Origin: a virus
IMG/VR virus record: IMGVR_UViG_3300029742_000017
DNA: 33,399 nucleotides
Direction: 5' to 3' (one strand)
The position numbers were made by a program, and so were the translations under genes. The notes below the pieces were generated by a model, which was given only the letters and a program-made list of their open reading frames with translations, had not been told where the DNA came from and did not search any database. Numbering within the stretch: position 1 is the stretch's first letter; every line of letters begins with the position of its first letter. This document shows, piece by piece, positions 10,793-12,534 of this stretch.

Positions 10793-11371
10793 GTGGTTGA
10801 TGGATATGTCAACGTGACTGGCCGGGATAGCAGGCCGATACCAGATCGCAAGACCGGAAAATACTTTATCGAACGTATCCAGCAAGGTGCATTCCGTAAG
10901 GCATTGCAAAAAGCGGGAACAGTAAAAGCGCTGGTCGACCACAAAAAAGATCGGGTGATAGGTGATACTGAAACCAACTTCAAACTGCAGGAAGATGTGA
11001 TCGGACTGCGGGCACACCTGGAGACGGATGATGCAGAAGTGGTAAAGGCGGCAAAAGAAAAACGACTGCGTGGCTGGTCGTTCAACATTTTGCATCCGGT
11101 GGAAACCAGAGCGGAGCATCCCAGCGGAATGCCGCTGCGATCGCTGTCAGATTTTGATATGACAGAAGTATCACTGATCATCAATGCCAAACCGTGGTAT
11201 GAATCCACTACAGTAGAGACCCGGGCAGAGGGTGATGAAGAAGAAATCGAAATCAGAGCAGAAGAATTTGAGGCCAGCTATATTGGCTTTGAAGATAGCG
11301 ACCCGGAGCAGAAGGCTCCGGATCACAGCAAGTTAAAGGAAACCATTGAAAAATACGGAGGTACAATTTAA
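10793..11371 (+). CDS. Prohead maturation protease (HK97 / S78 family)
   Basis: DGYVNVTGRDS...ERIQQGAFRKAL...LVDHK motifs; position between portal and capsid; GTG start (start uncertain). Confidence 0.8.
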   Translation: MVDGYVNVTGRDSRPIPDRKTGKYFIERIQQGAFRKALQKAGTVKALVDHKKDRVIGDTETNFKLQEDVIGLRAHLETDDAEVVKAAKEKRLRGWSFNILHPVETRAEHPSGMPLRSLSDFDMTEVSLIINAKPWYESTTVETRAEGDEEEIEIRAEEFEASYIGFEDSDPEQKAPDHSKLKETIEKYGGTI

Positions 11372-12534
11372 GGGCTAAAAACAATATCAAGGCACTGCGG
11401 GAGACCAGAGCGGAAAAGGTAAAGGAGTTGGAACTGTTATATGCGACCGTTGAAGCGGAGCAGCGTGCGGTAACGGAAGAAGAAGAAAAGCAGATCGAGG
11501 CGATTACTGGAGAAATCGACAGCATCGACAAGACCATTAAGATCCTGGAAGATTTGAAGAAACGGCTGGCAAACGCTGCGGAAAAGAAAGAGGAGGTCGT
11601 CCAGGAAGAAGAACAGCGGGCAGAATCTGAAGAAAAGGCGTTCGAGGCATATCTGAGGGGAACCAAAGCGGAAGAACGAGCGGACACAAATCTGACGCTG
11701 ACGGATAACGGCGCGGTTATTCCGACTACCATCGCAAACCGGATCATTGAGAAGGTATATGATATTTCTCCGATTTTAGAGAGAGCCACAAAGTATAACG
11801 TCAAAGGAACGCTGGAAATTCCATTTTACCCGGCGAATGATGCAACAGATATTGCGATGGCATATGCAAATGAATTTGAGGAACTTGAGTCCACCGCTGG
11901 GAAATTTGGAAACATCGAACTGAAGGGATTTCTTGCCGGAGCACTGACGAAAGTATCCAGATCCCTGATGAATAACTCTCAGTTCGATATCGTGGGATTT
12001 GTTGTGGATCATATGGCTTACAGCATCCATCGTTGGATCGAAAGGGAGCTGTTAAACGGAACATCGAACAAGATTGTGGGATTATCCGGAGTAGAACAGG
12101 TCGTGACTGCGAAAGCAACAACAGCGATCACATCTGATGAACTGATTAAGCTTCAGGATACCGTCAAAGATGCGTTCCAGCAGGATGCGATATGGATCAT
12201 GTCTTCTGATACAAGAACAGCGATAAGACTGCTCAAGGATGATGTTGGTCGTTATCTGCTGCAGGATGATATCAACGCACCATTCGGTAAGGTGCTGCTT
12301 GGAAAACCTGTTTATGTTTCTGACAATATGCCGGAAATGGCCACAGGAAAGACACCGATCTACTACGGAGATATGAGCGGCTTGGCTGTAAAAATGGCTG
12401 AAGAACTGGAGATTCAGGTGTTGCGTGAGAGATTCGCCACCCAGCACGCTGACGGAGTAGTAGGATGGGTGGAAATGGATGCGAAAGTTGAAAATGCACA
12501 GAAGATTGCCAAGCTGACTATGGCGTCTGCATAG
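11371..12534 (+). CDS. Major capsid protein (HK97 family) with N-terminal coiled-coil delta domain, proposed AGG start
   Basis: HK97-type capsid sequence. GGAGG 11357-11361, then AGG 11371 overlapping the protease TAA (TAAGG). The first canonical start (TTG 11428) directly abuts AAGGAG with 0 spacing and truncates the conserved (x)AKNNIKALRETRAEK N-terminus. Confidence 0.8.
   Translation, partial: RAKNNIKALRETRAEKVKELELLYATVEAEQRAVTEEEEKQIEAITGEIDSIDKTIKILEDLKKRLANAAEKKEEVVQEEEQRAESEEKAFEAYLRGTKAEERADTNLTLTDNGAVIPTTIANRIIEKVYDISPILERATKYNVKGTLEIPFYPANDATDIAMAYANEFEELESTAGKFGNIELKGFLAGALTKVSRSLMNNSQFDIVGFVVDHMAYSIHRWIERELLNGTSNKIVGLSGVEQVVTAKATTAITSDELIKLQDTVKDAFQQDAIWIMSSDTRTAIRLLKDDVGRYLLQDDINAPFGKVLLGKPVYVSDNMPEMATGKTPIYYGDMSGLAVKMAEELEIQVLRERFATQHADGVVGWVEMDAKVENAQKIAKLTMASA

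Follow-up and report, generated by a model that had tools for sequence, protein, structure and literature searches.

To our knowledge, every natural translation system described so far begins proteins with an initiator tRNA that carries the anticodon CAU. Phages with suppressor tRNAs recode stop codons in their late genes, and AUU is known as the start codon of the bacterial gene infC. The GTC start of sigR is reported as a further rare natural non-canonical bacterial start (PMC5472188). Among twelve pairs engineered in E. coli, the highest output came from an initiator tRNA (metY) with the anticodon CCU and an AGG start; this was the best non-canonical pair in all strains tested, and in one strain its output was above that of AUG (bioRxiv 10.64898/2026.04.16.719103). 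Without the matching tRNA, AGG starts are rejected by IF3 in E. coli (PMC6868393). Initiation at AGG by a phage-encoded tRNA with this anticodon is feasible, because the engineered pair works. The present analysis concerns a stretch of viral DNA of 33,399 nucleotides (nt), IMG/VR record IMGVR_UViG_3300029742_000017, referred to as the window. Its major capsid gene very probably starts at an AGG at positions 11371-11373, and the window encodes its own tRNA(CCU). This initiator-type tRNA probably decodes the AGG starts of the capsid gene and of six further late genes. All of the evidence is derived from sequence and computation.

The window shares with the engineered E. coli system the codon-anticodon pair, the dependence on a Shine-Dalgarno site, and initiator identity elements combined with a non-CAU anticodon. 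The engineered system is man-made from tRNAfMet, whereas the system here is natural and phage-encoded and would serve defined late genes. The phage tRNA has also diverged from the engineered one in the D arm, the anticodon stem and position 37. The likeness to stop recoding by suppressor tRNAs is that a phage tRNA changes the meaning of a codon, making late genes readable only with that tRNA. In stop recoding, however, a stop codon is read as sense during elongation, whereas here an arginine sense codon would serve as the start in the P site and internal AGG still aligns with arginine. The AUU and GTC starts likewise are triplets other than ATG, GTG or TTG on real genes, but they are weakly read by tRNAfMet and limit expression. 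In contrast, the AGG starts stand on the genes of the most abundant virion proteins and would have a dedicated tRNA. Full-text literature searches found neither a natural initiator with a non-CAU anticodon nor a phage AGG start, and a natural private AGG start codon would be new in kind.

The capsid junction

Four features define the junction between the prohead protease gene and the major capsid gene.

11357..11361, plus strand: GGAGG, Shine-Dalgarno site of the capsid gene, inside the Gly-Gly codons of the protease; duplex with the anti-Shine-Dalgarno sequence -10.8 kcal/mol
11369..11373, plus strand: TAAGG, the protease stop TAA (11369-11371) overlapping the proposed capsid start AGG (11371-11373); kept in relatives
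11371..12534, plus strand: major capsid protein gene, HK97 fold (PF05065), read from AGG; assigned by profile match and relatives
11428..11430, plus strand: TTG, first canonical start of the capsid frame, adjoining AAGGAG at 11422-27; probably unused, with a Shine-Dalgarno energy of only -5.0

The protein matches PF05065 over residues 121-390 (5.1e-45), the Phage_capsid domain follows a coiled N-terminal region, and a prohead protease gene of the Peptidase_S78 family lies directly upstream. The first-pass annotation, made from the letters of the window, had described the overlap of the protease stop with AGG, the GGAGG that ends 9 nt before it, and a capsid frame open from 11350, and each of these elements was present on recheck; the frame opens directly after a TGA at 11347-49. 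The bare pattern GGAGG-N9-AGG occurs three times in the window against an expectation of 1.0, which is not significant alone. The weight of the junction comes from its position and conservation and not from the frequency of the pattern.

Relatives of the capsid region were drawn from viral, genome and metagenome collections and labelled L001, L002 and so on. The junction is common to all relatives in the clade, whose capsids share 57-99% identity, and AGG is invariant at the start position. Relatives match the capsid from the AGG codon onward. The earlier proposal that the capsid N-terminus lies upstream of the TTG at 11428 is upheld by these relatives, whose capsid open reading frames (ORFs) encode the same peptide, ..NIKAL(R/N/Q)E(T/K/Q)RAEK.., and the alignment of homologues shows this N-terminal peptide also in relatives that do have an upstream ATG (MKLNIQYFAEKRKDNIKALRETRAEK). 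The upstream peptide that the annotation had quoted is real, but needs trimming to R-AKNNIKALRETRAEKVKE, since its final 'LE' consists of the TTG codon and the next one.

The capsids of the clade occur in two forms. The short forms, to which the window belongs, have the arrangement ..AAATAYGGAGG-N8/9-AGG.. and no canonical start ahead of the NIKAL(R/N/Q)E(T/K/Q)RAEK peptide. The long forms are represented by database proteins of 387-407 amino acids that begin M(K)LNIQ(Y/F)FAE.., and the ATG of these proteins has no Shine-Dalgarno site. GGAGG-N9-AGG precedes that ATG by 6, 9 or 13 codons in the same frame, with no stop between, so that the reading of AGG as the start extends to the long-leader forms. 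In one lineage (L024/L025/L027/L056) a one-base difference removes the TAA and sets the capsid frame +1 instead of -1 to the protease frame, and GGAGG-N8-AGG and all of the sequence after AGG are retained. Capsid expression is therefore independent of the protease reading frame. Taken together, AGG 11371 is, with high confidence, the capsid start.

The leader of the long forms, M(K)LNIQ(Y/F)F'AE, matches the Prp motif MLxx(D/N)LQ(F/L)F'A. Ribosomal protein L27 and, in phage 80alpha, the capsid and scaffold proteins have N-terminal leaders that are cleaved by Prp (PMC9405229). Leaders of this L27/Prp type were seen in the long-form capsids of L095 (10001..), L099, L096 and L016/L029, and in proteins P0003, P0068 and others. 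The motif suggests that the host Prp trims the capsid N-terminus in relatives that also encode an S78 prohead protease. The likeness to the cleaved leaders of L27 and 80alpha is confined to these long-form relatives. The window capsid differs in that the leader is lost, and its AGG-start product would begin 1-2 residues from the predicted Prp cut site. A comparison of L003, TAAGGAAAAAGA[..]AACAACATC, with L004, TAAGGAAAAAGAAAAACATT, makes the short form look like an in-frame deletion of the leader, estimated at about 57 nt (19 codons).

Several other accounts of the junction were considered and rejected. An assembly or sequencing error is ruled out, since dozens of assemblies made independently show the junction. 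A prfB-type shifty stop is ruled out as well, as slipping by +1 at ATT-TAA would lead into the wrong frame. Translation of a short upstream third-frame ORF (ATG TCT AAG.. in relatives of the L004 type) followed by a +1 shift would require an ATG that the window, L001/L002 and L009 do not have.

AGG starts in the late genes

The capsid junction is the visible edge of a larger system. It comprises six more AGG genes and a tRNA(CCU), both of which the first-pass annotation had missed. The window is a temperate siphovirus-type genome according to gene calls and profile searches. Its early genes are followed by the tRNA, HNH, TerS, TerL, portal, protease, capsid and connector genes, and then by the major tail gene, chaperones, tape measure, tail genes and lysis genes. 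In all long ORFs, codons were scored for occurrence behind a strong Shine-Dalgarno site and ahead of the first canonical start. AGG was conspicuous, with seven long plus-strand ORFs and Shine-Dalgarno energies of -9.4 to -13.0 kcal/mol. No other codon grouped in this way among the ORFs of the window; the further codons that scored were neighbours of AGG sites or of ordinary starts. Besides the capsid gene, the AGG genes are the following.

9546..10757, plus strand: portal, read from AGG 9546; AGGAGG at 9534-39 (N6); the TerL stop TAG lies at 9533-35
10745..11371, plus strand: prohead protease (Peptidase_S78), read from AGG 10745; GGAGG at 10731-35 (N9); overlaps the 3' end of the portal gene by 13 nt
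14238..14777, plus strand: major tail protein, read from AGG 14238; AAGGAGG at 14225-31 (N6); the next canonical start is 63 codons downstream
15325..18081, plus strand: tape measure, read from AGG 15325; AGGAGG at 15312-17 (N7); an in-frame TAA (15322-24) stands directly before AGG
19912..20598, plus strand: tail protein with a CBM_5_12 domain, read from AGG 19912; TAAGG overlap with the upstream gene; AAGGAG at 19896-901
22668..23402, plus strand: CHAP-domain endolysin, read from AGG 22668; TAAGG overlap; GAGGAGG at 22654-60 (N7)

At six of these AGG starts, 6-9 nt separate the Shine-Dalgarno site from the codon, and at 19912 AGG follows AAGGAG after 10 nt. None of the seven genes has a canonical start backed by a Shine-Dalgarno site, whereas the early genes and the remaining late genes start at ATG, GTG or TTG with normal Shine-Dalgarno sites. 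The portal-protease junction at 10731-47 reads GGAGG-N9-AGG-GCA and has the same design as the capsid junction. The conserved N-terminus of the protease, (R)ARIELRAE..VIIDGYVNV, contains no canonical start, and the GTG at 10793 of the window is GTA in L002. In the endolysin, the CHAP domain starts at residue 39 counted from AGG, and the first ATG with a Shine-Dalgarno site (22818) would cut off the beginning of the domain. In the tape measure, positions 2-3 of the PHROG tape-measure profiles align with residues 2-3 counted from AGG. TAAGG stop-start overlaps are present at three of the seven genes (11369-73, 19910-14 and 22666-70). They resemble the ATGA and TAATG overlaps of translational coupling, in which stop and start share bases and the upstream gene contains the Shine-Dalgarno site. 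They differ in that the start triplet is AGG, and the other four AGG genes have no such overlap.

Two further features lie within this part of the window. At 10763-10778, inside the 5' region of the protease gene, a second strong Shine-Dalgarno site (AAAGGAG) is followed by CTG-GTG in the third frame, which closes after 14 codons; the element is absent in L002 (GGGAG..GCG). Between the major tail and tape measure genes, within 14787-15313, two overlapping ORFs occupy different frames (14778-15152 and 15047-15313), and this is the usual location of the tail chaperone pair made by -1 frameshifting.

The position of AGG coincides with that of ordinary start codons. In relatives without the tRNA(CCU), the homologous genes carry ATG, GTG or TTG exactly at the aligned position. 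Portal proteins begin with MGLF or MAWF at canonical starts and with RGLF or RVLF at AGG; the corresponding pairs are MANK and RANK for the major tail protein, MADKIRGITIE and RAGRIKGITIE for the tape measure, and MKIIF and RVIIF for the gene at 19912, which has ATG at the same position in L095/L101/L039. The annotation's reading of AGG as a start gains from this alignment and from the recurrence of the same signal at six further late genes. At the major tail gene the exchange is a single-base polymorphism, with ATG in L030 (6865) and AGG in L031-33 (L033 12698). The 80 nt upstream of this start are identical in L030 and L031-33, and the loci are 94.6% identical over 3 kb. The tape measure genes of L095 (about 13880), L100, L101 and L016 (about 6860) have GGG 7 nt after GGAGG and no other in-frame candidate start. 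By analogy with GUG, this GGG may be a wobble start for the CCU anticodon.

The triplet itself appears to be constrained. A hand count over five genes and the long-leader capsids gave about 90 distinct start contexts, with AGG in about 85, GGG in four, ATG in one, and AGA or CGN in none. An automated scan of the clade returned 75 distinct contexts of a Shine-Dalgarno site with AGG. At strictly conserved internal arginine positions of the same genomes, the codons vary freely and AGG accounts for 10 of 88. Because the internal arginine codons vary and the start AGG does not, selection acts on the AGG triplet itself and not on the amino acid only. An alternative genetic code, with AGG reassigned as a sense codon, was rejected, as internal AGG aligns with conserved arginine and alternates with AGA and CGN.

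The phage tRNA(CCU)

The window encodes one tRNA.

6661..6734, plus strand: tRNA with the anticodon CCU, which reads AGG, and an encoded CCA end, proposed to be of the initiator type; called by ARAGORN, and scored by the Rfam tRNA model at 49.9 bits with 1:72 flagged as non-standard

ARAGORN calls this tRNA arginine, and its anticodon is that of an elongator tRNA-Arg(CCU) and not the CAU of initiators. The rest of the molecule has an A1xA72 mismatch, G2:C71, C3:G70, A73, G30:C40 and the anticodon loop CUCCUUA with U37. Covariation was examined in 15 sequence variants from relatives. The cloverleaf is well maintained, with 94.6% of cells paired and 14 of the 21 pairs changing on both sides. Three pairs, G2:C71, C3:G70 and G30:C40, are invariant, as are the CCU anticodon, the CUCCUUA loop and U37. 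Position 1:72 is unpaired in 13 of the 15 variants (AxA, GxA, UxU or CxA; in L056 C1xA72, with the acceptor stem CGCGGGA/UCCCGCA), is U:A in two, and is never G:C or C:G. A73 is found in 14 variants, G29:C41 in 11 and A11:U24 in 10.

Elongator tRNAs need a Watson-Crick pair at 1:72 for binding to EF-Tu and a purine at position 37, and a pyrimidine at position 37 is unusual in elongators that read ANN codons. Neither elongator trait characterizes this family, in which 1:72 is mostly unpaired and U37 is constant. The other tRNAs of the same phages (Gly, Lys and Ile were examined) have a normally paired 1:72. In bacterial initiators, the formyltransferase recognizes chiefly the 1:72 mismatch together with the pairs 2:71 and 3:70, and the middle G30:C40 pair alone sustains E. 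coli initiator function; natural initiators with an au/GC/gu stem exist (PMC5389676). The phage tRNA has in common with bacterial tRNAfMet the 1:72 mismatch, G2:C71, C3:G70, A73 and G30:C40, and often also G29:C41 and A11:U24. It differs from tRNAfMet in its CCU anticodon, in U37 instead of A, in a short D loop, and probably in an amino acid other than methionine. The three consecutive G:C pairs of tRNAfMet (29:41, 30:40 and 31:39) are complete only in the variant of L096, and the window has au/GC/ug.

A scan of metagenomes for the anticodon loop returned 40 well-formed copies. Position 1:72 is mismatched in 36 of them (CxU in 16, CxA in 12, AxA in five and GxA in three), and the remaining copies have C:G (two), U.G (one) and U:A (one). 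One metagenome variant (L153) adjoins four gene starts with a Shine-Dalgarno site and AGG. In a different phage group, which carries a C1xA72 variant of the tRNA, a DUF1492-like gene, which resembles a late regulator, starts with AGG in L210 (about 10493) and with ATG in L122 (9725). The fetched loci of L107, L122 and L136, which carry CxU and some of the CxA tRNAs, stop short of the structural genes. The metagenome tRNA of L119 combines the CUCCUUA loop with a normal acceptor stem (C1:G72 and C2:G71). U37 with a CCU anticodon is thus not confined to the initiator-like family.

The region around the tRNA gene has features of its own. A perfect 16-bp hairpin occupies 6614-6654 (-27.1 kcal/mol, z = -5.8) and stops 7 nt short of the tRNA; it has no T-run after it, and a promoter-like site lies upstream of it at 6550-6577. 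The hairpin may act in processing or regulation of the tRNA or of the late transcript. The sequences seen in front of the tRNA in relatives are AT-rich and unlike this hairpin. Additional tRNAs occur in several relatives: Gly-CCC on the minus strand in L031/L033, Ile-UAU and Lys-UUU in L034/L038/L047, and Ser-GCU in L096/L097. Where Ile-UAU is present, its gene lies directly upstream of the tRNA(CCU).

The tRNA and the AGG starts are linked in three ways. The tRNA(CCU) is present in all 18 loci of the AGG clade that have enough upstream flank, always ahead of the HNH-terminase block, and a tRNA of any kind is absent from the seven canonical-start relatives whose upstream flank reaches 9.5 kb or more. 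The base just before the start (position -1) is A at 66 of 75 distinct AGG starts compared with 58 of 131 canonical starts, a preference that fits pairing with U37 of the tRNA. Pairing between position 37 of the initiator and position -1 of the mRNA has been shown for E. coli tRNAfMet (PMC10018350). Phages with the tRNA show no higher internal use of AGG than phages that lack it, which speaks against simple codon supplementation. From these features we infer that the tRNA reads AGG starts, and there is a good chance that it is the initiator for the AGG of the capsid gene.

The most likely mechanism would begin with binding of the 30S subunit to the strong Shine-Dalgarno site, GGAGG inside the end of the protease gene, which would place AGG 11371 in the P site. 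The codon would be decoded there by the phage tRNA of 6661-6734 rather than by the host tRNAfMet. The unpaired 1:72 with G2:C71 and C3:G70 would provide the formyltransferase determinants, and G30:C40 would license use in the P site. U37 could pair with the A that stands just before most AGG starts and create a four-base AAGG/CCUU contact. The portal, protease, major tail protein, tape measure, CBM tail protein and endolysin would use the same AGG device. The phage thus appears to reserve a start codon of its own for some of its late genes.

Alternatives and significance

The AGG start could instead be read by the host tRNAfMet as a near-cognate codon, helped by the strong Shine-Dalgarno site and by coupling, with the phage tRNA(CCU) serving as an elongator for AGG arginine codons. 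AGG differs from AUG at one position, ARAGORN assigns the tRNA to arginine, and phage tRNAs for rare codons are common, with Ile-UAU, Lys-UUU and Gly-CCC among the relatives. This explanation is unlikely for several reasons. IF3 suppresses AGG starts in E. coli, yet no proteins are required in greater quantity than those of the capsid and major tail. A conserved unpaired 1:72 with invariant G2:C71 and C3:G70 is unexpected in an elongator, as is a pyrimidine at position 37 of a tRNA that reads an ANN codon. Phages carrying the tRNA do not make greater internal use of AGG, and the A at -1 fits U37 and not A37 of tRNAfMet, which favours U. A start at a rare AUN codon is far less probable. In this case, the capsid would begin at the isoleucine of NIK (ATC 11386), TAAGG would act as a weak Shine-Dalgarno site, and the isoleucine of RIEL would be the equivalent start of the protease. 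ATT or ATC does occupy the NIK codon in most relatives, 11 nt after AAGG(A/G), and AUU has its precedent in infC. However, the protease codon varies like an ordinary sense codon (ATT, ATC, ATA, and GTA in the window itself), and no such codon stands at a suitable distance in the major tail, tape measure and portal genes. The invariance of AGG and its replacement by ATG would also be left unexplained.

The two remaining alternatives concern the capsid gene and are the least credible. A start at TTG 11428, with a delta domain shorter by 19 residues, is highly improbable even though it is the only ATG, GTG or TTG nearby and is the start chosen by gene callers (P0001, 368 amino acids). The TTG abuts AAGGAG with zero spacing and is replaced by CTG in relatives that are 98-99% identical (L001/L002), which bears out the annotation's doubts about it. 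All relatives conserve the peptide encoded by the 19 upstream codons, and in other lineages the first canonical codon is found at varying places. The annotation had also named a protease-capsid fusion as an alternative, which would be made by -1 frameshifting on the A-run GAAAAAT (11348-54) and then cleaved by the protease. Fusions of these two proteins exist in other phages, the capsid frame is -1 to that of the protease and open from 11350, and an A5 run lies at 11349-53. Nevertheless, the site has no X XXY YYZ heptamer, and the peptide encoded by the capsid frame upstream of AGG is not conserved (IWRKCL versus NTEVTQ). Most relatives have the capsid frame at -1 to the protease frame, but L024/L025/L027/L056 have it at +1 and retain GGAGG-N8-AGG, and the independence of the protease frame seen there argues against a frameshift fusion. 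Frameshifting alone could not give a large excess of capsid over protease. The in-frame TAA directly before the tape measure AGG implies that the shared design cannot need read-in from upstream. These observations contradict the fusion and make it very hard to credit.

The proposed role of the phage tRNA as an initiator is the reading we prefer, and several points weigh against it. By anticodon rules the amino acid on the tRNA would be arginine, possibly formylated. The methionyl-tRNA synthetase should reject a CCU anticodon, and charging by the arginyl-tRNA synthetase is doubtful as well: A20 is an identity element of this enzyme, and the position between G19 and A21 in the D loop is not a conserved A and may be G, U, C or A among the variants. 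The window tRNA is among the less initiator-like variants, with U11:A24 and A29:U41/G30:C40/U31:G39. Two variants have a paired U1:A72, and the L039 variant has two UxU mismatches in its T stem. Some AGG starts, most often that of the tape measure, have a base other than A at -1. The co-occurrence of the tRNA and AGG starts is confounded by ancestry, as the AGG-start phages form one clade. Finally, the ordinary tRNAs of the relatives (Ile-UAU, Lys-UUU, Gly-CCC and Ser-GCU) reveal a habit of codon supplementation in these phages.

The scan of genome contigs for capsid relatives found only four loci, and one relative is a prophage in Anaerostipes butyraticus. Among deposited phages, a DNA search matched only Lactobacillus delbrueckii phages, at about 64% identity in the capsid C-terminus and none of them in the clade, and a protein search found no clade members. 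On balance, the evidence tilts towards a lineage of temperate phages infecting gut Firmicutes that has evolved a second, orthogonal initiation channel, in which an initiator tRNA(CCU) with a U37:A-1 contact starts structural and lysis genes at AGG and occasionally at GGG.

The AGG starts have consequences for annotation. Gene callers truncate or misplace the starts of the portal, protease, capsid, tail tube, tape measure and lysin genes across this phage group, and database proteins of 368-383 amino acids compare with true lengths of at least 387. The system is directly testable, as clade prophages reside in cultured bacteria, among them Anaerostipes butyraticus JCM 17466 and the isolates of IMG genomes 2728369668, 651324054 and 2924101686, and the ATG-AGG polymorphism between L030 and L033 is a ready natural control for experiments. 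If the proposed decoding is correct, synthetic biology would also gain from the phage an orthogonal initiation pair optimised by nature and functional on Firmicute ribosomes. Translation of the AGG genes would then require production of the phage tRNA. The purpose of such an arrangement is a matter of speculation; it might be to time late genes, to keep virion and lysis genes unexpressed in the lysogen, or to free late translation from the host initiator tRNA, which is a target of some host toxins. A natural second initiator would represent a new way for a virus to partition the translation apparatus, and would be the start-codon counterpart of stop recoding.

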